Positions 750-14,558 of a DNA stretch of 64,000 nt are shown here, one piece after another. The notes below the pieces were generated by a model. It did not search any database. It saw only the letters and a list, made by a program, of their open reading frames with translations, and was not told the origin of the DNA. Position 1 is the first letter of the stretch. Each line of letters starts with the position of its first letter. The DNA lies in IMG/VR virus record IMGVR_UViG_3300027734_000039; one strand, 5' to 3'. The translations under genes and the position numbers were made by a program. The DNA is from a virus.

Positions 750-1493
750 ATGGAACACGTTAAGAGACTAACAAGAAAAGAAAAACGTATTCTTAGGCAA
801 AATAACGAGAAGGTAGATAATCAAGAAAAATTAAATTTTAAACTCAAAAATGTAGAACCTTTAACGCAAAACCAAAAGCTATCTTTTGAAGCATATCATA
901 ATGGTAAAAATTTGATGCTTCATGGAATCGCTGGTACTGGTAAAAGTTTTATTTCTATGTATTTGGGATTGAATCAAATACTTGGTGAAAATAGTCAGTA
1001 TAAAAAACTTGTTATTGTTAGAAGTGTTGTTCCAACTAGAGATATGGGATTCCTTCCAGGTAACTCTAAAGAAAAGGCAAAAGTGTATGAAGCACCCTAC
1101 TACGCAATCTGTACAGAGCTCTTTGGTCGCTCGGATTCTTACGAGTATCTTAAATCCAGGAATGTGGTTGAATTTATCTCCACATCTTTCATACGCGGCA
1201 TTACTCTTAATGATTGTATCATTGTGGTGGATGAAATTGCCAACATGACATTACACGAGCTAGACTCGGTAATTACTCGCGTTGGTAAAAATTGTAGAAT
1301 TATTTTCTCTGGGGATTTCCGTCAATCAGACTTCACCAAAGAACATGAAAAAAATGGGTTGATTGATTTTATGCGAATTATTGAACGTATGAAGTCCTTT
1401 ACCTTTATTGATTTTAATGAACATGATATTGTCCGAAGCTCCATGGTGAAAGACTATATTATTCAAAAGGACAAATTGAGAATTGTCGCGTAA
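750..1493 (+). CDS. phoH: PhoH-like ATPase
   Basis: Walker A GIAGTGKS, MGFLPG, FIRGITL, DEIAN, GDFRQSD and DIVRS motifs. Confidence 0.95.
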   Translation: MEHVKRLTRKEKRILRQNNEKVDNQEKLNFKLKNVEPLTQNQKLSFEAYHNGKNLMLHGIAGTGKSFISMYLGLNQILGENSQYKKLVIVRSVVPTRDMGFLPGNSKEKAKVYEAPYYAICTELFGRSDSYEYLKSRNVVEFISTSFIRGITLNDCIIVVDEIANMTLHELDSVITRVGKNCRIIFSGDFRQSDFTKEHEKNGLIDFMRIIERMKSFTFIDFNEHDIVRSSMVKDYIIQKDKLRIVA

Positions 1494-2148: not shown

Positions 2149-4006
2149 AGTTTAATCCTACCATAGCAGAAACACCTTTATAACCATTGCCGCCATAATC
2201 GCCCCCTAACGATACAAAGGCAGAGGTAGTTTCATTTATTTTCTTATCATACTTTACACGAACTTGACCAACTGTTTTGAAATCTTTAGATTGAGTAACT
2301 CTAGTTTCAACAGAAAAATCTTGGTCAAGTTGATAACGCACACCTGCATATGGACGAACTTCTGTTCTATCTTTCTTTTCAGGGAGAGTAGATAACAAAG
2401 GAGAACCAAATTCTTTTGATGAATATATATCGCTATAGTTTAACGTCGCGCCGAATAAAGGTCTAAACCCGAAATAGTCTTTTCCGGAATAAACAGTAAT
2501 ATCCGTATATGCGGTATTTTGACTTACCTTATTTGAATTGCTTAAATTGAAACCAGTGAGGTTTACTGCTGAGTTATAATTTGTATTACTATAACCAACA
2601 GAAGTTTTTACCAAAGCAAGATCTTGTTTAGTTAACCAATAAGCAGTTCCGGAACCAGTTTTGAATAATGAATTTGAATTATTATATACATAAGATTCTA
2701 CTTCTTCATAAGCACCAGCAATACCATAAGTGTTTTTACCGATAGTATTTTGATAACCGAAGCTTAAACCAGATGATCTTAAACCACCATTTATTCTAGT
2801 AAATCCTAAAATTGGCTGTGCCCACTGACCGTCTTTGATAGATAAAGCGTCGACGATAAATGGATTAAAGTTTCTATAATCTAAAGAATTTTTCAAAGCA
2901 ACAGCTGAAGCAGTTTTGTTTGCTGAAGTTGAATCACCAAACTGATAAGCAGTTCCAGTTTGTGTTGTTGTAGTTGCAGGATTGTTTGGATCAGCAACGG
3001 TTGTGGTTGTATTGTTACTCCATGTCTGAATCACCTTCGGTGTTGTAACCGTTGTGACTGTATATGGCGTAGCAGTTACAGGAGTTGTTGTCTGAGTTAC
3101 ATTAAACTTAGATCCTGTATTCGTGCTAGATGTTGTAACCAACGTTGGTGCTGCTGTTGGTGTCCCTAAAGTCGTTGTCGAAGTAACAGTTGGTGTTGTT
3201 GGTGTTGTGCTTACAACTGTTGGGTTCGATGGAGCTGGTGTAGGATCAACCGTTGGCATGTTTGGATTGTTAGGAGCAACAGCACCGAACGTCTGACCGT
3301 TCTTAGTTACAGATCCAAGACCATCGTTCACATACAGAACTGGCGAAAGAGCAGTATCACCCTGATTGAATGAAGCGAAACCAAGACGATACGTTCCAGC
3401 ATCTACAGTTTCGTAGTTGACGATCTGCCAACCAGTTGAACCGTATGAACCAGTCGAATAGTTACCTGTTCCTGGATTTGTAGCACCGAGCAGAATGTAT
3501 TGTGTAAGAACGTTATTGATCTTACCAAGAGCAGCTGCGTTGCCTGTGTTCACGAATGTTGTGATAGAACCGTCATTGAACGGAACGTAGTCAGTCGATG
3601 TGTAAACCCAATACATCGAGAACTTAGTAGCAGCTGCAAGTGGGAAATCTTTATAGACCCATGCTGCGTTGGTAATGTTACCACCACCTTGTGGATTTTG
3701 TGCAGCGATTTCACCAGAAAGAGCAGATACAGAAGCGGCACTCATACCGAGCGCATTTGTCATATTGGTATATGTTGCTGTTGGATTAGTTGGTGTGAGA
3801 CCAACCATCGTCGATCCCGTGTATGGGCTGATTGCCCATGCATTCATGCCAGCTTGAATTGTTTGTGTGCCAGTCTTTGTAGCTGTCCCAGCAGGACCAT
3901 TTGTCCATCCACTGGCGCTTAGTGAGTAATCTTGTGAAAACGCTACCGATGTAAATGCAAATAGGGCGATTGTCGCCGCTAGAATCTTTTTCATTTTTGG
4001 CTCCAT
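2138..4006 (-). CDS. Autotransporter-like outer-membrane protein
   Basis: Signal peptide (MKKILAATIALFAFTSVAFS), beta-rich N-domain, Pro/Thr-rich linker, C-terminal amphipathic beta-strands ending VGLNFKF. Confidence 0.7.
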   Translation of the reverse strand: MEPKMKKILAATIALFAFTSVAFSQDYSLSASGWTNGPAGTATKTGTQTIQAGMNAWAISPYTGSTMVGLTPTNPTATYTNMTNALGMSAASVSALSGEIAAQNPQGGGNITNAAWVYKDFPLAAATKFSMYWVYTSTDYVPFNDGSITTFVNTGNAAALGKINNVLTQYILLGATNPGTGNYSTGSYGSTGWQIVNYETVDAGTYRLGFASFNQGDTALSPVLYVNDGLGSVTKNGQTFGAVAPNNPNMPTVDPTPAPSNPTVVSTTPTTPTVTSTTTLGTPTAAPTLVTTSSTNTGSKFNVTQTTTPVTATPYTVTTVTTPKVIQTWSNNTTTTVADPNNPATTTTQTGTAYQFGDSTSANKTASAVALKNSLDYRNFNPFIVDALSIKDGQWAQPILGFTRINGGLRSSGLSFGYQNTIGKNTYGIAGAYEEVESYVYNNSNSLFKTGSGTAYWLTKQDLALVKTSVGYSNTNYNSAVNLTGFNLSNSNKVSQNTAYTDITVYSGKDYFGFRPLFGATLNYSDIYSSKEFGSPLLSTLPEKKDRTEVRPYAGVRYQLDQDFSVETRVTQSKDFKTVGQVRVKYDKKINETTSAFVSLGGDYGGNGYKGVSAMVGLNFKF

Positions 4007-4062
4007 TATGGTTTGATAATTTCATCAATCATCAGACACATAACGAAACAACATCTCTACTC

Positions 4063-4074
4063 TATTTATAAATA
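4063..4074. promoter_or_regulatory. Bidirectional T4-type late promoter (TATAAATA on both strands)
   Basis: Palindrome TATTTATAAATA between divergent genes. Confidence 0.65.
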
Positions 4075-4095
4075 ATAAAAAAGGTGGAGGTTTTT

Positions 4096-4377
4096 ATGGA
4101 TACTTGGTTTAAATTAATCGCCGATGTCGGCTTTCCTATCGCTGCTGCATGCGCAATGGGATACTTTATTTTCTTAACGATTAAATTCATCCTTGCTGGT
4201 GTTATGAGTAGCGTCCAAGGACTCAGTGGAATCATTACTGCTCTCGATAACAGAGTTAAGACGATGAACCACGACGTCATAAGAATCGACACTCTCGTCT
4301 CCAACGCCATGGGTGTTAAACCTGACATTGACCGTATCGCCCGTGCGGACGGCAAAAACGATGCAAGAAGGGACTGA
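4096..4377 (+). CDS. Small membrane protein (one TM plus coiled coil)
   Basis: GGAGG then ATG at 4096; DVGFPIAAA TM segment; paralogous to next gene. Confidence 0.75.
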   Translation: MDTWFKLIADVGFPIAAACAMGYFIFLTIKFILAGVMSSVQGLSGIITALDNRVKTMNHDVIRIDTLVSNAMGVKPDIDRIARADGKNDARRD

Positions 4378-4379
4378 CC

Positions 4380-4733
4380 ATGGGTGATATTGCTCAATTA
4401 ATTTCAAAGTATGGGTTTCCTATTGTCGCTGCGGCAGGTATGGGTTATATGATTTTTTATGTGTGGACTTGGGCTACACAGGAAGTTAAGCCAGTACTCT
4501 CAGAGGCTAATAAAGTTTTGATTGCGCTTATTGATCGTATTCGCATGTTAGATAATGACCTTATTCGTTTAAATCAAAAAGTTAATATTGTTCTTCAACT
4601 ACGTAAAATGGAACATGACGAGTTAACAAAGCAAGCTCATCAGTTTTTGATCGAAGAAAATAACAGGTCCGTATCTGTACCAGAGCAAAAGACCGAGGAA
4701 AAGCCAGACGAATCCAATAAGAAAGTAAAGTAA
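4380..4733 (+). CDS. Small membrane protein (one TM plus coiled coil)
   Basis: KYGFPIVAA TM segment and LIDRIRMLDNDLIRL, similar to LDNRVKTMNHDVIRI in previous gene. Confidence 0.75.
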   Translation: MGDIAQLISKYGFPIVAAAGMGYMIFYVWTWATQEVKPVLSEANKVLIALIDRIRMLDNDLIRLNQKVNIVLQLRKMEHDELTKQAHQFLIEENNRSVSVPEQKTEEKPDESNKKVK

Positions 4734-4735
4734 TA

Positions 4736-5707
4736 TTACTTCCTTAGATTGTCTATGAACATTTTCGCTGTTTTCTTCCAATCGTAATTTTCCTTAATAA
4801 AGTTAGAGCAGTCAGACGATTTAAGTTTGACTGCTTTTTCGCAAGCAACTTTAAGATCCCAATTCATAGCCCCAACTTTTTTATTGAGGATATCGATTGG
4901 ACCAGTTACTGGATAAGCAGCAACTGGTGTTCCGCAAGCAAGAGCTTCAATAATAACTATACCGAATGTATCTGCCTTTGATGGGAATACAAACACATCA
5001 GCATTTTGATAAACAAATGCTAAATTATTACCTGTTAATTTGCCCATAAAATTTACATACGGATATTTTTTTCTTAATCTTTCAAGTTCTGGACCATCGC
5101 CAACAACAACCTTTGTTGATTTAATATCTAAATCAAGAAAAGCTTCGATGTTTTTTTCTACCGAAACTCTACCAACATAAAGAAGCATTGGTATCTGCCC
5201 CTTTAATCTTTTCGGCTTCGGTGGTTTAAATAGATTAGTATCTACACCACGAGTCCATTTAACAAGATTAACAAACCCACGTCTTTCAAGATCTAATTTC
5301 AAACTATCAGTCGTCACCATCACAGCTGAACTTTTAGAATGAAACCACTTCATATATTTGTATGTAAACTTAGCTGGAAACTTAATCATTGCTTCTAAAA
5401 ATTCAGGAAACTTTGTGTGATAGCTCGTTGTAAAGTTTCTTTTGTTTTTTACACACCAGTTTCTTACAGCTAACCCGATCGGTCCTTCTGTAGCGATATG
5501 AATATACTTTGGATTTAGTTTCTTTATCTTTTCATCTATGCCAAAAGGTATGGCTAAACTAATCTCATTATATAATGGACATGGAAATGATTTGAAATCG
5601 TTCGGTGTGATGAAAATAACATCATCACACTCTTCTTGTATTTTCTTTAAGGTCATAACAACGCCGTTAACTTGTGGTTCCCAAGCGTCAGTTGCGATAA
5701 GAATCAT
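4736..5707 (-). CDS. GT4 glycosyltransferase, Agt-like diacylglycerol glycosyltransferase
   Basis: TDAWEPQVNGVV, HIATEGPIG, FTTSYHTKFPE, WTRGVD, VGRVSVEKN and DTFGIVIIEA motifs. Confidence 0.85.
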   Translation of the reverse strand: MILIATDAWEPQVNGVVMTLKKIQEECDDVIFITPNDFKSFPCPLYNEISLAIPFGIDEKIKKLNPKYIHIATEGPIGLAVRNWCVKNKRNFTTSYHTKFPEFLEAMIKFPAKFTYKYMKWFHSKSSAVMVTTDSLKLDLERRGFVNLVKWTRGVDTNLFKPPKPKRLKGQIPMLLYVGRVSVEKNIEAFLDLDIKSTKVVVGDGPELERLRKKYPYVNFMGKLTGNNLAFVYQNADVFVFPSKADTFGIVIIEALACGTPVAAYPVTGPIDILNKKVGAMNWDLKVACEKAVKLKSSDCSNFIKENYDWKKTAKMFIDNLRK

Positions 5708-5835
5708 TTTACAGCTTGTGTTTTCTTATTTTTCAAAGACTTCTTAAGAATTTTAAACCAAACTTTCTTTTCTTTATCCTTATTTTTTTCAAGGATAGCT
5801 TTGTAAAGTTTAGAAACTAACTTATTTACTTTCAT
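5704..5835 (-). CDS. 43-aa Lys-rich peptide (not in ORF track)
   Basis: MKVNKLVSKLYKAILEKNKDKEKKVWFKILKKSLKNKKTQAVK; overlaps upstream stop and downstream start (ATGA). Confidence 0.6.
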   Translation of the reverse strand: MKVNKLVSKLYKAILEKNKDKEKKVWFKILKKSLKNKKTQAVK

Positions 5836-6583
5836 CGTTCCACCTTATTAGTTCGAATTTACCATCATAGTGTTCAACAATAGCAGTACAAGATTCTACC
5901 CAGTCACCACAGTTATAGTATTTAATACCGTTGAAATCGCCAATGTTAGCGTGATGGATATGACCACAAACAACACCGCTAACTTCTTGTGTTTTAGCAA
6001 AAGAAGAAAGGGTCTCTTCATAATTGCCAATAAAGTTTACAGCTTCTTTTACTTTGTACTTAGCCCATGCACTCAATGACCAATATGGCAACCCAAACCA
6101 GTTTCTAACTTTAGTAACAAGAGTGTTAAGCGCCATCGCTACATCATACGCCCAAGAACCTAGATGAGCTAACCACTTTGCATTTCTAATTACAGCATCA
6201 AACTGGTCGCCGTGTATGACAAGTATAGGTTTACCATCAACTGTAATATGAACGAAACGTTCTAATACGTGAATGTTACCAAAGAACTGATCACCAAACG
6301 TTCTTAGTATTTCGTCGTGATTGCCTGACACATATATGATATCAGTACCTTTACGACCTTTTCTTAATATCTTTTGTACAACGTCATTGTGACTTTGTGT
6401 CCAATACATATTTTTTGACATAGCCCAGCAGTCAATAATATCGCCTACCAAATAAAACTTTTCACATTCAAACGTTTTCATAAACTCTAATAGAGCATCA
6501 GCCTGTGACGCTTTTGTCCCAAGGTGAACATCTGATATGAATACAGAACGATACTTATTTACTATTGGTTCTGAAGACGCCAT
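5822..6583 (-). CDS. Metallophosphoesterase, PlcP/LpxH2-like phospholipase C
   Basis: SDVHLG, LVGDIID, HNDVVQKILRKGRKG, GNHDE, HGDQFD, GHIH and GDWVESCTA motifs; adjacent to Agt-like GT4. Confidence 0.85.
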   Translation of the reverse strand: MASSEPIVNKYRSVFISDVHLGTKASQADALLEFMKTFECEKFYLVGDIIDCWAMSKNMYWTQSHNDVVQKILRKGRKGTDIIYVSGNHDEILRTFGDQFFGNIHVLERFVHITVDGKPILVIHGDQFDAVIRNAKWLAHLGSWAYDVAMALNTLVTKVRNWFGLPYWSLSAWAKYKVKEAVNFIGNYEETLSSFAKTQEVSGVVCGHIHHANIGDFNGIKYYNCGDWVESCTAIVEHYDGKFELIRWNDESK

Positions 6584-8618
6584 CCCAATTTTCTCCTGGT
6601 GGGTTTATTTTATATTCTTTTACTCTTTCCATCATCATATCATAATATTCTTTCATTTCACCATCAAATGCATTTTGAAGCGTTTTATAATAATCTTTTA
6701 GCTTATCCCACTTTTGACCTCTATAAAACTTTATAAAGTCCGCATGAGTACGAGAATAAGCAATGTTGATGCTATTCCTATCAACAATCGTGTAAATGTT
6801 AACACCTTCAGTTTTTCCTTTCACAGCAAGACAATCAAGCTCCAAGCATAGATATTCATCTTTAACTAACTCGTAAGTACGTTGACCTATAATCAGTTTT
6901 ACATGATACGGTTTTGATTGACCTTCTAGTCTAGAGGCCAAGTTAACAGAATCACCGAGGCAAGTATAATCGAAACGCTGAGAGCTACCCATATTTCCGA
7001 CAACAACAGAACCAGTATTGATACCAAGACCCATACCGAAAGCAGGAATACCTTCGTTGGCGATTTCAGCATTGAAGCGATCCAAGTCGCCAAGCATTTC
7101 AAGAGCTGTTTTAACTGCATGTTTAGCGTGATCCTTATCGTCTAGTGGTGCGTTCCAAAAAGCCATTTGAGCATCACCAATATATTTATCAAGCGTTCCT
7201 TCATTTTCAAGTATTTTCGCAGTCATCGCTGTCATGTAGCGATTCATAATCTCAGTAAGACCTTGAACGTTAGATCCATAATGCTCACTAATAGTAGTGA
7301 AACCCCTAACATCAGTAAACATAATTGAAAGTTCTCTGGTTTCTCCGCCAAGGCGTAATAACTCCGGATTCTTTTGTAGTTTTTCTACAAGAGCTGGTGA
7401 AAGATAAGTTCCAAACTGCTTTTTAATTTGTTGTTTTAATCTGAATTCACGAGCGAAATTATTAAACGTCAATTGAAAAAATATTGCGATGCAACTAAGT
7501 AATATGTAGCTCGGATCCCACAGCTGCATATAATTTAAAAACATATAATACGAACCGCCGACAATGGAAACGACAAATGTTATCAAAACAGGTATGGTCC
7601 AAAAGACCGAAGTACGAGGTATTAGAATTAGCAATGTGCCTAATAGCAATACTAGCAGCGCTGTCTCTAGTAGCTTACTCTCTGGTAAACGGCTTATAGA
7701 AGTTCCGTCAATTAAAGTTTGAAGTGCTTGACCTTGCACTTCATGTGCCCACTTCTCCCCGATAGGTGTTGCAACTATACCACCAACACCTTCGATGGTC
7801 AATCCTAAGATAACAATTTTCCCTTCGACGGTTTCTTTTGTAATTTCAGTTGCTTCAATCTTGCTGAAGTTGTTGTTCCATCCGAGCCAGATGCGACCGT
7901 TTTTATCTGTAGAGATGGCGGGGAACTGTGGGATGCGGACGGCTTCGACACCCGCTTCACCTGTTTTGATTTGGTAAGAGGGATCGCCAGCAGCTGTTCG
8001 TAAGGTTTCCAATACAAAAGAAGGATACAGTGTATCGCCAATCCGAGCCAACATAGGCATACGACGGACAACGCCATCGCGCTCGGGAGCAACTGCCAAA
8101 AGCCCAACACCATCCGCATTTCCTGCCAATGTTGGTAAAGGAGCCACAGCCCCCCTCCAAGTATACAACCATGGATCAGGAGCATTACCGATACTAGCAA
8201 ACCCTCTGCGAGCAGCATCTGCTGGTCTTGATTGAGATGTAGGAGTTTGAGAAATGACAACGCTACCACCTCCTAAACTTTTTGCGAGCTCTTGGTCGCC
8301 ACCAGCTCTATCTTTTTCAGAAAATAAAATAGGAACTGAAATAACTGCTGCACCTGAATCGCGGAGCGTATCAATCGTTTGAGCAATATCCCTTCGGTCA
8401 AATGGCCATTGACCAAATTTTTGAACTGACTTTTCGCCAAACTCAACGAAAACAACTTCATCCGACTGTTTCTTTTCTAGTGTTCCTATCAGATAGTCAA
8501 AGGTTTTCAGCTGTAGTGTTTCGATAGGACTTGGATTGATAACATACAATGTCAACAGGAGAAAGGCGCTGATAGCAGCTGCCCACGTACTTGTAAGATA
8601 TTTGCCCAGATTTTCCAT
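6555..8618 (-). CDS. CHASE2-domain class III adenylate cyclase
   Basis: N-terminal TM, CHASE2 (GQWPFDR, DGVVRR), 3 TMs, catalytic FTDVRGFT, DKYIGDA, YTCLGDSVNLASRLE. Confidence 0.92.
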   Translation of the reverse strand: MENLGKYLTSTWAAAISAFLLLTLYVINPSPIETLQLKTFDYLIGTLEKKQSDEVVFVEFGEKSVQKFGQWPFDRRDIAQTIDTLRDSGAAVISVPILFSEKDRAGGDQELAKSLGGGSVVISQTPTSQSRPADAARRGFASIGNAPDPWLYTWRGAVAPLPTLAGNADGVGLLAVAPERDGVVRRMPMLARIGDTLYPSFVLETLRTAAGDPSYQIKTGEAGVEAVRIPQFPAISTDKNGRIWLGWNNNFSKIEATEITKETVEGKIVILGLTIEGVGGIVATPIGEKWAHEVQGQALQTLIDGTSISRLPESKLLETALLVLLLGTLLILIPRTSVFWTIPVLITFVVSIVGGSYYMFLNYMQLWDPSYILLSCIAIFFQLTFNNFAREFRLKQQIKKQFGTYLSPALVEKLQKNPELLRLGGETRELSIMFTDVRGFTTISEHYGSNVQGLTEIMNRYMTAMTAKILENEGTLDKYIGDAQMAFWNAPLDDKDHAKHAVKTALEMLGDLDRFNAEIANEGIPAFGMGLGINTGSVVVGNMGSSQRFDYTCLGDSVNLASRLEGQSKPYHVKLIIGQRTYELVKDEYLCLELDCLAVKGKTEGVNIYTIVDRNSINIAYSRTHADFIKFYRGQKWDKLKDYYKTLQNAFDGEMKEYYDMMMERVKEYKINPPGENWDGVFRTNSK

Positions 8619-8620
8619 TT

Positions 8621-8884
8621 TCAGTACTGGTTGATGATATATGGACTATTAGGGCAGCTGCTACCACATACAACGCTAAGGCTAAAAGACTGTGCATTAA
8701 TTCCAGACTGAGTGACTGAAACGCTAATCCCGTCGCCTGAAAGTTGCAAATTAGCAGAATGACCAGAAGCAGACTGAGTAATAATAACATTTTGATTTGC
8801 TCCTTGAATGTTCACGATTGCATTATTAATATTCTGCGAATAAGCAGCAGTAGTCATAAAAAGTAAAGCTAAAAGTGTTTTCAT
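8621..8884 (-). CDS. Small secreted curlin-like protein
   Basis: Signal peptide, N-x-A-x-V/I-x-Q repeats, CxxxC, ends IINQY. Confidence 0.65.
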   Translation of the reverse strand: MKTLLALLFMTTAAYSQNINNAIVNIQGANQNVIITQSASGHSANLQLSGDGISVSVTQSGINAQSFSLSVVCGSSCPNSPYIINQY

Positions 8885-9996
8885 CAGTTACCCTGCTTTA
8901 TATTGATAGTTGTTGTTCCTCTACTATTTACAATTTGAGAAATAGTAATGTTTTCTTGGGTAATGTTTACGGTTAAACTGTTATTAGTAGATACCGTTAC
9001 TTCTGCATATGCACCACTTACTTCGCGATATAATGTAACATAGTCATTTTCAACGAAATACTTCAATCCAGTTGCAGCATTATACTTAGGCAATAGAGCA
9101 TTATATTCAGTTAATTCGTTACCTAGTAATTGAGAAGATGCTATATCCAAAAGGTTCATAAGGTAATCTGAATCGAGATAATTTCTATCTAACTTATTAT
9201 ACTCTGATAGGTAATTTTTACTTAACTCGGTATATATTAATAGGTCTTTTCCAAGTAGATCTTCATCAAGAAAATTGTAAGCTTTAGTTACTATATTTTC
9301 TTGAACTGCCACCTGTTTCGGTGGGGTAACAATAATTAGGTTATTGATTTGATCTAAATTGAGATTAAGGATAGCTGACTTCGGTGTAGTCATTCTACTA
9401 CCAACTGCAACTGATTCGAATGGCTTTGTTAACCAAACCGTACCCATATCAGTCGTTACGGATATAGATCCTGTGATACAATCGCGTTCAACATTTCTCC
9501 ACCCAACAGGGCAAGAAGGTAAAAGAATAACAGTACTGCGACCGATCTCGTCAACAGTTCCAGAAAAGTCAGTTCCTCTGACACCGATTGTAGCTGTGGG
9601 CGTCTCAACAACAACCTGTTGCGGATCAGATTTAGCGATTTGACCTGATGCATATTTAATAGTTCCCAAAGCCATCTTGATTCCAAGCTTACCAGTTTTC
9701 TTAGAATCATCGTAAACAAAGTTATCAATTACAAGTTTAGAATGCTCGGTTATTTGAACCTTAGTATCATCCTGAAATGTAATGCCAGCTTTACCATTAG
9801 CAGTTGTGATTGTATCTCTCATCTCAATGCCACTTTGAATGGCGCTTGAAATCACAGCTGTATTACGTTTAATTTCAGTTGGACCTGTTTGCTCTGTTAC
9901 TTTACCAACGTCAGCTTTAGTTGTGGTTGGATCTAATAGTAAGAGTGTTGCCAGAACCAGTGATTGTAGAAATGACCTTTGAATCAACGCCGCCAC
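8884..9996 (-). CDS. FecR-domain protein
   Basis: Signal peptide; DTITT, ITFQDDT...ITEHSKLVID, TPTATIGVRGTDF. Confidence 0.85.
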   Translation of the reverse strand: MAALIQRSFLQSLVLATLLLLDPTTTKADVGKVTEQTGPTEIKRNTAVISSAIQSGIEMRDTITTANGKAGITFQDDTKVQITEHSKLVIDNFVYDDSKKTGKLGIKMALGTIKYASGQIAKSDPQQVVVETPTATIGVRGTDFSGTVDEIGRSTVILLPSCPVGWRNVERDCITGSISVTTDMGTVWLTKPFESVAVGSRMTTPKSAILNLNLDQINNLIIVTPPKQVAVQENIVTKAYNFLDEDLLGKDLLIYTELSKNYLSEYNKLDRNYLDSDYLMNLLDIASSQLLGNELTEYNALLPKYNAATGLKYFVENDYVTLYREVSGAYAEVTVSTNNSLTVNITQENITISQIVNSRGTTTINIKQGN

Positions 9997-10600
9997 CTTG
10001 CTTAATATCTACCGTATTAGTAGCGCCCAGGATATTCACGTCTGCTTCATGTCCATTTATACCTGCTACACCAGTTTGTTTAATTGCTACTTCATTACCG
10101 CCGCCGCCATCGATAAGCACAGTGCTTTTTGCACCAGCAACTGATGATGAATCGTTCTGAATGTTTACTGTGTTATTATCTGTATTGATTGTAACTGTTG
10201 AAAGTGTAAAACCTTCGGCATTTTGAGTAACAGTATTGTTATCGCCTGTAATTGTATTAACTAGAGACGAACCTGAACAAGATCCGCCAGAACCACAGGA
10301 AATACCTACTGCGTTGTTATCGCCAGTTACCAAAGAGTTTATAGTAACGCCATCACCAAAAACAACTACGTTGGCAACGTTAGTGTTACCTATTTGGTCG
10401 ATTGTTACGATATTGTTTTGTCCGTTAAAAGTCGCTTTATTCGTTGCATTACCAATAGAATTAGTGTTACCAGTTTGGGTCATACTGATCGTAGAACCAT
10501 CGCCTATCTGATCAACGTATACACTATTTCCTGCTGCGTTTGCATAATTTACCATAACCAAGAATGACAATAACGCCATCATTCTTGTTAATAGTTGCAT
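9917..10600 (-). CDS. Curlin-repeat (CsgA/CsgB-like) secreted protein
   Basis: Signal peptide followed by repeated N-x-V-x-I-x-Q-x-G-x-x-N units. Confidence 0.8.
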   Translation of the reverse strand: MQLLTRMMALLSFLVMVNYANAAGNSVYVDQIGDGSTISMTQTGNTNSIGNATNKATFNGQNNIVTIDQIGNTNVANVVVFGDGVTINSLVTGDNNAVGISCGSGGSCSGSSLVNTITGDNNTVTQNAEGFTLSTVTINTDNNTVNIQNDSSSVAGAKSTVLIDGGGGNEVAIKQTGVAGINGHEADVNILGATNTVDIKQGGGVDSKVISTITGSGNTLTIRSNHN

Positions 10601-11425
10601 TTATTTTCCCTTCTTAAAGCTCCATAAGTTTTTCTTAGCGCCTTCTTTAATCATCTCTGTAACTGCCGCCTCAATCGCGATTCTAACGGCATACGTTGTC
10701 GGTTCGTTGACAGAAGAACCAGCTTCGAACTCTACTGATTTAGTTCCAGCATCAACAAACTTAAATACGTTAGCATTAACACCTGTACTGAATACGGTTT
10801 TAGTAACGCCAGTAGATAAAAGTATCTCACCTGTATTTATAGAAATTAACCTTAACATTATAGTAACTTCGTCTTTTCTATACTCCTGAGTAGCTCCTAC
10901 GCCAAGGAATCTAGCACCGATACCGCCAGTACCGATGTTAGAGTCATACCCGACGATACCACCATCAATCATAATACCAGCAACGATGAGAGGCGTCAAA
11001 GGCTTTGCCTGATCCTTCTCATAAAGCTCTCTCTGTGAACGAATAAGCTGTCTTTCTTTTACAAGGTTTTCAAGAGCAACACGTTCAACGGGCATAAACC
11101 ATTGACCCTTGCCAGCATCCTGTAAAGCTTTAATTAAAAGAACTTCGCCGCCCTGCGTTACTGCAGAACTGAACGAAGCATAGTTTTGCGATGGTTTTCT
11201 TTGGCCAGTTAAGTCAGCAAACTTATAAACAGCAATAGGAACCTTTGGCCCATCTACAGGAGCAAGGTTCGCTAATTCATTAAATCTCTTAGAAGTTTTA
11301 ATTACTTCTGGGGAATCAACTTGCGGCTCTACATGCCTTGCGCTTGTTATTTCTTTACCTGTGCAACTTGCAACAAGTAAGCCAGCAAATATAGCAATCC
11401 ATAATTTTTTTATCGTTTTTACCAT
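10601..11425 (-). CDS. csgG: Curli secretion pore lipoprotein CsgG/HfaB family
   Basis: Lipobox LLVASC; IAVYKFADLTGQRKP, SSAVTQG, VERVALENLVKERQLIRS, GGIVGYDSN. Confidence 0.92.
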   Translation of the reverse strand: MVKTIKKLWIAIFAGLLVASCTGKEITSARHVEPQVDSPEVIKTSKRFNELANLAPVDGPKVPIAVYKFADLTGQRKPSQNYASFSSAVTQGGEVLLIKALQDAGKGQWFMPVERVALENLVKERQLIRSQRELYEKDQAKPLTPLIVAGIMIDGGIVGYDSNIGTGGIGARFLGVGATQEYRKDEVTIMLRLISINTGEILLSTGVTKTVFSTGVNANVFKFVDAGTKSVEFEAGSSVNEPTTYAVRIAIEAAVTEMIKEGAKKNLWSFKKGK

Positions 11426-11856
11426 GCTAAACTCCCATACGGAACTACCACTTCAGTAACGCTACCAGCAGCATCTGTTATTCTTAATGTTATATTAGAA
11501 CCATCAGATGACCAAGCAACGTTATTAGATGCAATATCAAAAGACCCAGAAGTTTTGCCGTCGTCGCTAAAAAGCTGTTCGGCTATCTTCTGGGATAAGG
11601 TCGCATAGACGCGACTTTCTAAATTGTTTAGAAACTTGGCTAGGTTTGTATTTTTAGCATCCGAAGCTGCTTTAGCTGCCTCGGCTTTTTTATCATCTAA
11701 TAACTTTTGTTTTCTTGTTTGTTCTAAATTTTCTATCGTAAGAACATGAGAAGAAAACCCTACGCCGTTAAAAGCAGGACTTCTAAACTGAAATTGAATT
11801 TCATTAGCATATGAAACAGAAGAAAATAAACAAAATAATGCGACTAACTTTTTCAT
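11419..11856 (-). CDS. csgF: Curli assembly protein CsgF family
   Basis: Signal peptide then EIQFQFRSPAFNG; FLNNLESRVYATLS; adjacent to csgG. Confidence 0.88.
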   Translation of the reverse strand: MKKLVALFCLFSSVSYANEIQFQFRSPAFNGVGFSSHVLTIENLEQTRKQKLLDDKKAEAAKAASDAKNTNLAKFLNNLESRVYATLSQKIAEQLFSDDGKTSGSFDIASNNVAWSSDGSNITLRITDAAGSVTEVVVPYGSLAW

Positions 11857-11878: not shown

Positions 11879-11952
11879 TGGCACCAGTGGAAGGAGTCGA
11901 ACCCTCGCCTAGATTTTTGGAGAATCCCGTGCTACCGTAACACTTCACTGAT
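11879..11952 (-). tRNA. tRNA-Trp(CCA)
   Basis: Cloverleaf, loop CTCCAAA, encoded CCA. Confidence 0.85.
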
Positions 11953-11968
11953 ATATAACTATTTAGGG

Positions 11969-12058
11969 TGGTGGAGAGTGTGAGATTCGAACTCACGGAA
12001 CCTGTTAGGGTTCGAGCATTTAGCAAACGCTTGCCTTAAGCCTCTCGGCCAACTCTCC
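11969..12058 (-). tRNA. tRNA-Ser(GCT)
   Basis: Loop TTGCTAA, long variable arm, CCA. Confidence 0.9.
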
Positions 12059-12062
12059 GTAA

Positions 12063-12147
12063 TGGTGGAAGAGGATGGATTCGAACCAACTCACCGTACA
12101 GAATCGATTTACAGTCGACCGCGACTCTCCAACTTCGCCGCTCTTCC
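12063..12147 (-). tRNA. tRNA-Tyr(GTA)
   Basis: Loop CTGTAAA, CCA. Confidence 0.9.
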
Positions 12148-12153
12148 AATTCT

Positions 12154-12227
12154 TGGTACCATCTACTGGTTACGATCCAGTGCTAAGAGTGCCACAAACT
12201 CTTGTGCTACCATTACACTAAGATGGC
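12154..12227 (-). tRNA. tRNA-His(GTG), no G-1, A73
   Basis: Loop TTGTGGC; G1.U72 pair, A73, T at -1. Confidence 0.88.
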
Positions 12228-12228
12228 A

Positions 12229-12304
12229 TGGTGCTGCCTGAGAGGTTCGAACTCCCGACATCTCGATTACTAATCGAGTGCTCTACCAACTGAGCTAAGG
12301 CAGC
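12229..12304 (-). tRNA. tRNA-Thr(AGT)
   Basis: Stem CTCGA/TCGAG, loop TTAGTAA, canonical D and T arms, CCA. Confidence 0.88.
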
Positions 12305-12309
12305 ATATT

Positions 12310-12386
12310 TGGTGCGCTTGGAGGGAGTCGAACCCCCAAAACTTGGTTTCTAAGACCAATACGTATACCAATTCCGTCACAAGCGC
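12310..12386 (-). tRNA. tRNA-Leu(TAG), short variable loop
   Basis: Loop CTTAGAA, CCA. Confidence 0.85.
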
Positions 12387-12392
12387 ATTTAT

Positions 12393-12467
12393 TGGAGCGG
12401 ACGATGAGATTCGAACTCACGACAACTTGCTTGGCAAGCAAGGACTCTACCACTGAGCTACATCCGC
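12393..12467 (-). tRNA. tRNA-Gly(GCC)
   Basis: Loop TTGCCAA, CCA. Confidence 0.9.
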
Positions 12468-12472
12468 ATTAA

Positions 12473-12547
12473 TGGAGTTGCCTCCCAGAATCGAACTGGG
12501 TTCTCAAGGATTTGCAGTCCCGTATATTACCATCCTACTCAGGCAAC
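12473..12547 (-). tRNA. tRNA-Cys(GCA)
   Basis: Loop CTGCAAA, U73, CCA. Confidence 0.85.
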
Positions 12548-12550
12548 AAT

Positions 12551-12624
12551 TGGCGATCCTGAAGGGACTCAAACCCTCCTTTTCCCGTAGACAGCGGGAA
12601 GCCTTCTCTGACGGCAACAGGATC
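12551..12624 (-). tRNA. tRNA-Asp(GTC)
   Basis: Loop CTGTCTA, G73, CCA; T-loop TTTGAGT. Confidence 0.8.
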
Positions 12625-12626
12625 AG

Positions 12627-12704
12627 AACTCGTGATAGGACTTGAACCTATATGCTCCCGAATACTGCCGTAGACAAGAGAACTTACGCTTAGTTGACAC
12701 GAGT
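12627..12704 (-). ncRNA. tRNA-like element lacking a canonical anticodon loop and CCA
   Basis: Acceptor ACTCGTG/CACGAGT, D-like AACT/AGTT, T arm ATAGG-TTCAAGT-CCTAT; anticodon arm extended. Confidence 0.6.
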
Positions 12705-12710
12705 ATAAAC

Positions 12711-12786
12711 TGGTGCTGTTGGAGAGAATCGAACTCCCGACCTGATGATTACAAATCAACTGTTCTACCAATTGAACTACAACAGC
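12711..12786 (-). tRNA. tRNA-Thr(TGT)
   Basis: Loop TTTGTAA, CCA. Confidence 0.9.
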
Positions 12787-12792
12787 GAATAA

Positions 12793-12880
12793 GTGGGAGC
12801 TAACCTTGGCTCCCGTCGGATCTATTTGTCGCGATCAACCGTTTGAGGGTTCCATGCATAAACGCTGTCTACCCACACCC
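12793..12880 (-). ncRNA. Structured RNA candidate between tRNA-Ala and tRNA-Thr
   Basis: Three helices: CGTTT/AAACG, GTTG-ATC/GAT-CGAC, GGGAGC/GCTCCC. Confidence 0.4.
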
Positions 12881-12884
12881 ATTT

Positions 12885-12960
12885 TGGTGGAGACATGCGG
12901 GATCGAACCGCAGACCTGAAGCTTGCAAAGCTACCGCTCTCCCAACTGAGCTATGTCCCC
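12885..12960 (-). tRNA. tRNA-Ala(TGC)
   Basis: GGGG start, G3.U70, loop TTTGCAA, CCA. Confidence 0.92.
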
Positions 12961-12962
12961 AA

Positions 12963-13045
12963 ATTCATCCGCGTCTTTTATAGTGGCTAAGTTATCGCAG
13001 CCCCACTACTGGTACGCACATCATCAGATCTAGAAACCGATGAAT
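12963..13045 (-). ncRNA. Structured RNA candidate between tRNA-Val and tRNA-Ala
   Basis: Closing ATTCATC/GATGAAT, inner TGCGT/ACGCG and TAGTGG/CCACTA helices. Confidence 0.4.
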
Positions 13046-13060
13046 AGTAATCCAGCGACT

Positions 13061-13135
<75 letters not shown>

Positions 13136-13141
13136 ATATAA

Positions 13142-13220
13142 TGGCTCCCAGTGCCGGAATCGAACCGACCTAACCATTGCTTAACAGGCAAGTCCATGCA
13201 CCATGCTCGGATTTCTGGGA
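13142..13220 (-). tRNA. tRNA-Asn(GTT)
   Basis: Loop CTGTTAA, G73, CCA. Confidence 0.85.
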
Positions 13221-13348
13221 ATAGAATTACTTTCCTCGTCTTTTACCGTTTTGCGGTTTAAATTCTGGAAGTAATTTTTTAAATCTTTGAACTAAATTTG
13301 GCTTAGATTTATCATAACCTGTTTGTTATAATTAACAGTATATAAACT

Positions 13349-13624
13349 TTAGTTACAAACTCGTTCTTGACGAATGCCGTAAGGAGTGCGGCGATCGACG
13401 ATATAGCAATGAGGACGACGAGGATAAACAGGAACATAACGTTCCTGATAAACTACTGGACGTCGCTCAACGTATACTGGACGGGGCTGAGACGCTTCAT
13501 TAGCTACAACTGCACCAGCAGCAGCACCAACAACACCAGCAGCTACAAGTTGCTGTTCGCGTGCTGTACAGCCAGCCAATCCGAGAGCAATAAGTGGAAC
13601 TAATAGAATCTTACGCATTGTCAT
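13349..13624 (-). CDS. Small lipoprotein with glycine-zipper-like segment
   Basis: Lipobox LAGC; AAGVVGAAAGAVV; Pro/Arg/Tyr-rich tail. Confidence 0.75.
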   Translation of the reverse strand: MTMRKILLVPLIALGLAGCTAREQQLVAAGVVGAAAGAVVANEASQPRPVYVERRPVVYQERYVPVYPRRPHCYIVDRRTPYGIRQERVCN

Positions 13625-13632
13625 TCCCCAAA

Positions 13633-14160
13633 TTAGAACTTATAATTTAAGCCAAGCGTGACAACGTTCTCATCGCGATCACGCTTACGGTCAGTGATAT
13701 AACGGTAACGAACATCTGCTTCAATATCGCTTGTGATGTCATAACGGACACCAGCACCAGCAACGTAGATAGGCTCGCGCTTAAGATCAGACCAACGATA
13801 ACCAACGCCAGCAAGAGCATAAGGAACAACAGGAACGAAACCAATCTTATACTGACCGATTACGTTTGTAGTTGCTGTATGTGAACGAAGCTTTGATGAT
13901 TCATTCCAAGCATAATCATAATCAGCTTCTACACGAGCAAACTCTGAAAATTCCCAACCAGCGCGAGCATTAACGCGAAGAGCGTCGTACCAAGGATTGA
14001 TATTTGTTACAGCCTTCGAACCCAAAGAACCGCCAACATAAAATTCAGCCGACTCTTGTGTAGGAGCAGGAGGTGCTGCTGGGGTCTTAGCAGGAATATC
14101 GCTAGCCGAAGCAGCGGTAGCAAAAATCAAACCAACAAATGTTACAACATACTTATTCAT
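13633..14160 (-). CDS. Small outer-membrane beta-barrel (Omp25/RopB-like porin family)
   Basis: Signal peptide then ASDIPAK-PAAPP; FYVGG, PYALAGVGY, GAGVRYDIT, YRY, ends LGLNYKF. Confidence 0.85.
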   Translation of the reverse strand: MNKYVVTFVGLIFATAASASDIPAKTPAAPPAPTQESAEFYVGGSLGSKAVTNINPWYDALRVNARAGWEFSEFARVEADYDYAWNESSKLRSHTATTNVIGQYKIGFVPVVPYALAGVGYRWSDLKREPIYVAGAGVRYDITSDIEADVRYRYITDRKRDRDENVVTLGLNYKF

Positions 14161-14190
14161 ACTTTTTACTCCATTTCAAGTTATACACCT

Positions 14191-14219
14191 ATTATATAGG
14201 TGATAGGTTTAAAAGTCAA
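14191..14219 (-). promoter_or_regulatory. Sigma70-type promoter for the omp gene
   Basis: TTGACT-17 nt-TATAAT. Confidence 0.8.
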
Positions 14220-14220
14220 G

Positions 14221-14310
14221 TGGAGGAAGCGGTGGGATTCGAACCCACGGGAGACTTTCGCCCCCGCTAGTTTTCAAGACTAGAACCTTAAACCACTCGG
14301 TCACACTTCC
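14221..14310 (-). tRNA. tRNA-Ser(TGA)
   Basis: Loop CTTGAAA, long variable arm, CCA. Confidence 0.9.
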
Positions 14311-14316
14311 ATTAAT

Positions 14317-14393
14317 TGGTCGGAGTGGCAAGACTCGAACTTGCGACCTCTGGTACCCAAAACCAGCGCACTACCAGGCTGTGCTACACTCCG
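14317..14393 (-). tRNA. tRNA-Pro(TGG)
   Basis: CGGAGTG start, loop TTTGGGT, CCA. Confidence 0.92.
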
Positions 14394-14404
14394 TTATTCT
14401 TATT

Positions 14405-14480
14405 TGGTGATCTCTGTGGGATTCGAACCCACGACAATTCGATTAAAAGTCGAATGCTCTACCAACTGAGCTAAGAGATC
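14405..14480 (-). tRNA. tRNA-Lys(TTT)
   Basis: Loop CTTTTAA, CCA. Confidence 0.92.
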
Positions 14481-14483
14481 TAA

Positions 14484-14558
14484 TGGTTGGCACAGGTGGT
14501 TACGATCCACCGACCCCTGTCTTATCAGGACAGTGCTCTACCGCTGAGCTATGCGCCA
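14484..14558 (-). tRNA. tRNA-Ile(GAT)
   Basis: Loop CTGATAA, T-loop ATCGTAA, CCA. Confidence 0.88.

Follow-up and report, generated by a model that had tools for sequence, protein, structure and literature searches.

A predicted PlcP-Agt lipid-renovation gene pair in the genome of a T4-like phage

We analysed a 64-kb stretch of viral DNA (IMG/VR record IMGVR_UViG_3300027734_000039, the whole of which is called the window below) that carries, on its minus strand, two neighbouring genes resembling the plcP-agt lipid-remodelling pair of bacteria. The first, plcP (5822..6583), encodes a metallophosphoesterase of 253 aa that is of the Mn type, belongs to the PlcP (LpxH2) family and is a predicted phospholipase C. 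The second, agt (4736..5707), encodes a 323-aa GT4 glycosyltransferase with a GT-B fold, a predicted diacylglycerol glucosyl/glucuronosyl transferase. A preliminary description, made from the letters of the DNA, had placed a metallophosphoesterase and a GT4 enzyme at 4736–6583 and proposed that they form a phage-encoded PlcP-Agt-like pair about 3 kb from phoH. Both open reading frames (ORFs) lie exactly there, Pfam agrees with both enzyme calls, and all the motifs quoted for them are present in the translations. The phoH gene itself (750..1493, plus strand; Pfam PhoH and phrog_170) is separated from the end of agt by 3.2 kb.

The same 64 kb encode a tail sheath, a large terminase, a portal, a major head protein, a UvsW-type helicase and a gp46-like nuclease, together with 16 tRNA genes. 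Since these structural and replication hallmarks share one contiguous sequence with the pair, the window is a T4-like phage genome, and the earlier claim that the pair is phage-encoded holds. The major head protein is 62–66% identical to those of T4-like phages of Stenotrophomonas, Synechococcus and Sinorhizobium and of Pelagibacter phage Mosig; being equally near to very different T4-like phages, it indicates no host. A megablast search of the plcP-agt region against isolated phages gave no match.

The plcP product matches Pfam Metallophos and Metallophos_2, the calcineurin-like metallophosphoesterases, and carries the motifs HNDVVQKILRKGRKG (residues 65–79), GNHDE (87–91), WLAHLG (137–142) and GDWVESCTA (226–234). 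It aligns without gaps to the PlcP orthologue of S. meliloti (55% identity) and to the PA3219 orthologue of P. aeruginosa (49%), reference proteins that are 47% identical to each other; identity of the phage protein to the named PlcPs falls within the range that those PlcPs show mutually. Identity to E. coli LpxH is 21%. Both reference proteins were taken from PLSDB, one from a 3.7-Mb S. meliloti replicon and the other from P. aeruginosa chromosomal fragments filed as plasmids. The S. meliloti gene adjoins the quorum-sensing genes sinR/sinI, and from these neighbours we take it to be SMc00171. The activity of S. meliloti PlcP has been assayed. Two things identify this reference as PlcP: the sinR/sinI neighbours, and an identity to PA3219 (47%) that agrees with the published 46–47% (PMC8528852). 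The P. aeruginosa reference pair lies between azoR3 and cyaB and is PA3219/PA3218; in the glycolipid pathway of that species the part of the phospholipase has been given to PA3219, a predicted PlcP (PMC8528852).

Some of these PLSDB records appear to be misfiled. The 3.7-Mb S. meliloti record, CP090106.1, is titled pSymB and looks mislabelled, as chromosomal genes (sinR/sinI, plcP) are found on it. Three P. aeruginosa ‘plasmids’ of 96–167 kb that match plcP (NZ_CP042268.1, NZ_CP137508.1 and CP075839.1) look mislabelled or are chromosomal fragments; on the one examined, NZ_CP042268.1, the chromosomal azoR3-PA3219-PA3218-cyaB region is present.

Public records and virome surveys label genes of this kind UDP-2,3-diacylglucosamine hydrolase or lpxH, and the nearest solved folds to phage PlcP are those of LpxH (template modelling (TM) score 0.55–0.58); no PlcP structure was found in the PDB. 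Taken at face value, such labels would make the pair a lipid A enzyme with a lipopolysaccharide (LPS)-core glycosyltransferase, that is, an auxiliary pair for LPS biosynthesis. A phylogeny against PlcP and true LpxH had been proposed beforehand as a check on this point. In a quick maximum-likelihood tree of 77 sequences (short search, support from the SH-like approximate likelihood-ratio test (SH-aLRT) only), LpxH is set apart on a long branch with 99% support, and phage PlcP falls on the PlcP side, inside an all-viral clade of 29 members that also has 99% support. This clade has as its sister group 28 cellular sequences, S. meliloti PlcP among them; P. aeruginosa PlcP takes a more basal position. 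Thus, phage PlcP lies between the two PlcP reference proteins and does not group with the lipid A enzyme.

Individual residues point the same way. All seven metal ligands are present in phage PlcP (D18, H20, D48, N88, H124, H208 and H210) and align with D8, H10, D41, N79, H114, H195 and H197 of LpxH, as listed in PMC5016852. His89, within GNHDE, stands at the position of LpxH Arg80, which is Arg in all four LpxH sequences aligned; LpxH is the sole family in which Arg replaces the His of the metallophosphoesterase GNH motif, and it does so in all known sequences (PMC5016852). At 25 alignment positions, at least 95% of PlcP sequences agree on a residue that none of the four LpxH has. The HGD and GH motifs enclose an insert of 76 aa, the same length as in both reference PlcPs; F, W and Y make up 17% of it, compared with 5.5–8% in the four LpxH. 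An aromatic-rich insert has been noted for LpxH2 of P. aeruginosa (PaLpxH2), the substrate of which was predicted not to be UDP-diacylglucosamine (Okada et al.). The catalytic core of phage PlcP is modelled confidently by AlphaFold.

Phage PlcP matches the two LpxH equivalog models over their full length, with scores far below the cut-offs: 50.9 bits against a cut-off of 134 for NF003743 and 41.2 bits against 190.35 for TIGR01854. Three gammaproteobacterial genomes encode both a true LpxH (254–299 bits) and a PlcP-type homologue (45–61 bits), showing that the homologue is a distinct paralogue. We conclude from these comparisons that the first enzyme belongs to the PlcP family and is not LpxH. 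Contradicted by the model scores, the low identity, His89, the separate clade and paralogy, a true LpxH/LPS gene pair can hardly be the correct reading.

The agt product matches Pfam Glyco_transf_4 and Glycos_transf_1 and carries the motifs TDAWEPQVNGVV (6–17) and HIATEGPIG (70–78). It is 43% identical to the orthologue of P. aeruginosa Agt1 (PA3218) in a full-length alignment of 324 residues (E 3e-95) and 40–49% identical to GT4 genes located directly downstream of cellular plcP; characterised Agts are about 41% identical to each other (PMC8528852). PA3218 alone suffices for synthesis of monoglucosyl-diacylglycerol (MGDG) in E. coli (PMC8528852), and such resemblance to an MGDG-making enzyme is a further point against an LPS-core glycosyltransferase. 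The same roles have been shown for plcP of Phaeobacter and agt of SAR11, and the latter gene, found downstream of plcP, makes MGDG as well as glucuronic acid diacylglycerol (GADG) (PMC4796936). AlphaFold predicts a GT-B fold for phage Agt with a predicted local distance difference test (pLDDT) score of 91.9, and its top structural matches are the GT4 enzymes SPS, MshA, BshA and PimB'. A comparison with Agt had likewise been suggested as a check. In our Agt tree (quick search, SH-aLRT only) a single clade holds the cellular plcP-linked genes, Agt1 among them, and the viral genes are distributed over several clades neighbouring it. These data argue that the phage GT4 is an orthologue of Agt1 and a predicted diacylglycerol glucosyl/glucuronosyl transferase. 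We hold it very likely that the two genes belong to the PlcP and Agt families.

Gene order supports the same assignment. Of the 30 best cellular loci, 19 have an Agt homologue immediately after plcP, and the phage order is the same; Sebastian et al. described this arrangement, plcP followed by agt, as ‘type 2’ (PMC4796936). Comparison with four phage orthologues gave ratios of nonsynonymous to synonymous change (dN/dS) of 0.03–0.09 for plcP and agt, with synonymous change near saturation, and the GC content at third codon positions (GC3) of both genes is similar to that of the phage's own structural genes. Low dN/dS, saturated synonymous change and phage-like GC3 together indicate that the pair has long been held and used by phages. 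The PlcP-Agt-like character first claimed for it is thus upheld by identity to named PlcP and Agt1, the tree, the His/Arg residue, the LpxH cut-offs, the cellular gene order and purifying selection.

One observation would suit a host fragment, newly captured or in decay, that has no phage role: on a related contig (L035:6001-6723), codon 49 of plcP is an in-frame TAA, through a sequencing error or because the copy is broken. In the window the two genes have unbroken reading frames and code for every catalytic residue. The viral sequences form a monophyletic, deeply diverged clade, and neither the selection on the genes nor their GC3 fits a fragment on its way to loss. Such an origin is contradicted on each of these counts and is scarcely credible. 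The pair is part of a real phage genome, is maintained by selection and belongs to a monophyletic viral clade; these are the attributes of auxiliary metabolic genes.

Relatives are encoded on at least 565 IMG/VR stretches, as counted by a profile scan. Partners of plcP were tabulated for 113 viral loci drawn from two scans, a few loci being entered twice. Directly downstream agt was found in 36 of them, and in another 36 a 233-aa GT2 glycosyltransferase is coupled directly upstream of plcP. Neither partner is adjacent in 32 loci, several of which have agt elsewhere in the locus, and a contig end truncates the remaining nine. The best NCBIfam match of the GT2 partner (e.g. L019:5303-6004 (+)) is TIGR04283, an arsenosugar-biosynthesis glycosyltransferase, at 85 bits versus a cut-off of 182.

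The 32 loci with plcP but no adjacent glycosyltransferase, together with phages Mosig and S-SRM01, would fit a different role, in which PlcP mainly degrades or weakens the host inner membrane (in lysis timing or host shut-off) and the glycosyltransferase acts on an unrelated target such as LPS or DNA. In the lineage of the window, however, plcP and agt are coupled, co-conserved and under strong purifying selection; their order is that of the cellular operon, and the GT4 is an Agt1 orthologue. The GT2 that is start/stop-coupled to plcP in 36 other viral loci also speaks for a need for sugar transfer once the lipase has acted. We therefore regard membrane damage as an improbable main function.

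Phage contexts of the cassette are diverse. It occurs as gp43-plcP-agt-uvsX-gp41 and as phoH-plcP-agt-exonuclease with no gene between (loci L127 and L134). In Pelagibacter phage Mosig, plcP is divergent from pstS, with which it shares a 150-nt intergenic region (L001:5851-6000).

In many lakes and ocean gyres the production of phages is limited by phosphorus, a shortage that they are known to meet with genes for uptake such as pstS and phoA. We put at roughly 0.6 the probability that 4736–6583 (minus strand) is a phage plcP-agt lipid-renovation operon, long kept by an aquatic T4-like phage lineage, that draws on lipid phosphorus. According to this proposal, PlcP, a two-metal phosphoesterase with an aromatic-rich lipid-binding insert, would cut the glycerol-phosphate ester of host glycerophospholipids (phosphatidylethanolamine, phosphatidylcholine and/or phosphatidylglycerol), leaving diacylglycerol in the membrane and releasing a soluble phospho-head group into the cytoplasm. 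Agt would then move glucose or glucuronate from a UDP-sugar to the diacylglycerol, yielding a phosphorus-free glycolipid (MGDG and/or GADG), and replacement by this glycolipid would keep the bilayer intact. Lipid phosphorus could in this way enter the soluble pool during infection and, via a host phosphatase or glycerol-3-phosphate metabolism, reach phage nucleotide synthesis. By a rough estimate that assumes cell size, lipid area and genome size, membrane phospholipid phosphorus amounts to ~6–16 genome equivalents of a 200-kb phage, a pool large enough to matter.

We infer the enzyme activities, the sugar used, the timing of expression and phosphorus supply as the selected benefit: orthology underlies the chemistry, and the phosphorus benefit draws on the parallel with pstS and phoA and on phoH and pstS being neighbours in other phages. 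On the evidence of the sequences, the two-step phospholipid-to-glycolipid chemistry is likely. For phosphorus supply as the main benefit, an argument by analogy, we would give even odds.

Several observations weigh against phosphorus supply, or against reading the substrate from the protein. The first is the setting of the pair. A CHASE2-domain class III adenylate/guanylate cyclase (6555..8618, minus strand; Pfam CHASE2 and Guanylate_cyc, full-length match to phrog_35576) lies directly upstream, its 3′ end overlapping the plcP start by 29 nt. It is preceded by genes for csgF, csgG, a curlin-repeat protein, a FecR-domain protein and an 87-aa ORF (8621..11856, minus strand; Pfam CsgF, CsgG, Curlin_rpt and FecR). 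The 114-nt gap between plcP and agt is occupied by a putative lysine-rich ORF of 43 codons (5704..5835, minus strand), read and translated from the sequence, which starts within the 3′ end of plcP and whose stop overlaps the agt start (ATGA). From csgF (11856) to agt (4736), each gene abuts or overlaps the next, in the order csgF, csgG, curlin-repeat, FecR, 87-aa ORF, cyclase, plcP, 43-codon ORF and agt. This translational chaining to a curli-secretion/FecR/CHASE2-cyclase block points to envelope biology rather than nutrient supply.

Regulation gives the phosphorus benefit no help either. The Pho box consensus CTGTCATNNNNCTGTCAT, which may not be that of the host, has two matches at three mismatches in the window, fewer than the 5.35 that chance would give, and neither lies close to the operon; the test applies to genes that sit inside a long operon. 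A promoter and terminator scan of 4000–9200 returned signals at chance level only. With no Pho box and no promoter signal above chance, phosphate-responsive control is not supported for the copy in the window. The product of PlcP is a further difficulty: the enzyme would free phospho-head groups and not free phosphate, so that host enzymes are still required. Finally, the lipid-binding insert of phage PlcP is modelled by AlphaFold with a pLDDT of 49–68, and at such low confidence substrate binding is not readable from the model.

In the plcP/pstS intergenic region of Mosig, which also has no match to the enterobacterial Pho box, we noticed that TTAAC(A) is repeated three times, at 5906, 5926 and 5937 (20 and 11 nt apart). 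A search of the window for TTAACA repeats found nothing.

The local operon context favours an alternative in which the PlcP and Agt chemistry is real and the benefit is a changed envelope, through a block to superinfection, altered display of receptors or porins, or conditioning of the membrane for the curli-type module. The pair forms the tail of the conserved abutting block, and a Pho box search that found none is in keeping with such a role. The block from csgF to the 87-aa ORF is found upstream of plcP in six other loci (L011, L013, L027, L031, L104 and L110), where the partner is GT2 or agt. The cyclase is syntenic upstream of plcP in L011, L012, L013, L027, L031 and L085; in L110 it follows plcP, and L104 is without it. 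Work on envelopes offers some precedent. Lipid make-up is reported to alter phage attachment in Ruegeria (PMC9938194), and loss of plcP changes membrane-protein abundance in P. aeruginosa (PMC9804370). Phage glycosyltransferases were taken as surface modifiers in the pelagimyophage paper (PMC7029224).

Yet the cassette is also found apart from the curli block, between gp43 and uvsX, between phoH and an exonuclease and, in Mosig, beside pstS, and its presence in such contexts implies a function independent of that block. A long-term change of the surface would be of little gain to a lytic T4-like phage. Moreover, envelope and phosphorus benefits are not mutually exclusive. We consider an envelope benefit in place of lipid-phosphorus renovation unlikely, though with an appreciable chance of being right. 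A broader proposal, which we offer tentatively and short of even confidence, joins the two: viruses of aquatic bacteria may run their own phospholipid-to-glycolipid conversion to mine membrane phosphorus, which here, in one operon with a periplasmic-sensor adenylate cyclase, a FecR-like protein and a curli-type secretion channel, would be part of a phage-run envelope programme and not a nutrient gene acting by itself.

No homologue of the 43-codon ORF was found in any related locus compared, and we do not claim it as a gene for this reason; its status is uncertain. In the close relatives L011–L014 it is absent, and plcP and agt overlap directly.

Compared with the bacterial PlcP-Agt operons (PA3219/PA3218 of P. 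aeruginosa, PMC8528852; PlcP of Phaeobacter MED193 and PlcP/Agt of SAR11 HTCC7211, PMC4796936; and S. meliloti PlcP), the phage pair has the same families, the same order and the same close coupling, and phage PlcP has the same metal ligands and the same 76-aa aromatic-rich insert. The proteins are somewhat shorter, 253 aa versus 270–281 for PlcP and 323 aa versus 351 for Agt. The phage pair differs in residing in a lytic-type T4-like phage, in being chained to the CHASE2 cyclase and the curli/FecR block, in the extra 43-codon ORF between the genes and in having no detected Pho box, and its activity is predicted. With LpxH (PDB 5K8K and 5B49; PMC5016852) phage PlcP shares the fold, a helical insert at the same place and the seven metal ligands, whereas the residues of the insert are unrelated.

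Like the phosphate-stress genes of marine phages (pstS, phoA and phoH), plcP-agt has a host phosphate-starvation function and is found in aquatic T4-like phages. Those genes act on external or soluble phosphorus, while plcP-agt would mobilise an internal structural pool, the membrane. Two proteins of isolated phages annotated as ‘UDP-2,3-diacylglucosamine hydrolase’, Mosig_00120 of Mosig EXVC030M and that of Synechococcus phage S-SRM01, are 47% and 33% identical to phage PlcP, respectively. Both fall on the PlcP side of the tree, in separate, more divergent lineages, and neither has an adjacent agt.

The preliminary description knew of no demonstration of such a pathway for a phage, and our literature search agrees: it returned no paper joining PlcP with auxiliary metabolic genes, pelagiphages or viruses, although its coverage was incomplete and an existing description is possible. 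The gene is not mentioned in the pelagimyophage survey (PMC7029224), and the plcP homologue is not discussed in the Mosig genome announcement. Virome surveys list viral ‘lpxH’ under LPS biosynthesis, and in one of them it is among the commonest surface genes of the phosphorus-poor eastern Mediterranean; none of the surveys examined counts plcP-agt among phosphorus genes. A 2023 study of HIMB59 phosphate islands called the pair LpxH and RfaG. Particular to the window are the setting of the pair in an operon with the curli, FecR and cyclase genes, the small bridging ORF and, in our search, the lack of a Pho box.

Should lipid-phosphorus renovation be confirmed, the host membrane would be added to the phosphorus sources of phages as an internal one, and a widespread auxiliary gene class, now filed as ‘lpxH / LPS biosynthesis’, would gain recognition. 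The non-phosphorus lipids measured in seawater would then come in part from infected cells, and not from starved ones only. Where ‘lpxH’ is counted as an LPS gene in surveys of phosphorus-poor surface waters (PMC10653327), it is probably plcP that is being counted. The hypothesis is testable with the methods used for the bacterial enzymes, and one cultured system is available, Pelagibacter phage Mosig, which carries plcP only.

Two further features of the neighbourhood were noted. The P. aeruginosa gene cyaB (L082:6819-8210), which encodes a class III adenylate cyclase, adjoins agt1, convergent with it and overlapping its 3′ end, and the catalytic domain of the phage class III cyclase directly upstream of plcP (6555-8618) is 32% identical to that of P. 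aeruginosa CyaB, which may be a coincidence. The 16 tRNA genes of the window form an array at 11879–14558 (minus strand), directly upstream of the csgF-to-agt block, that is split by an OmpA-like beta-barrel ORF (13633–14160).

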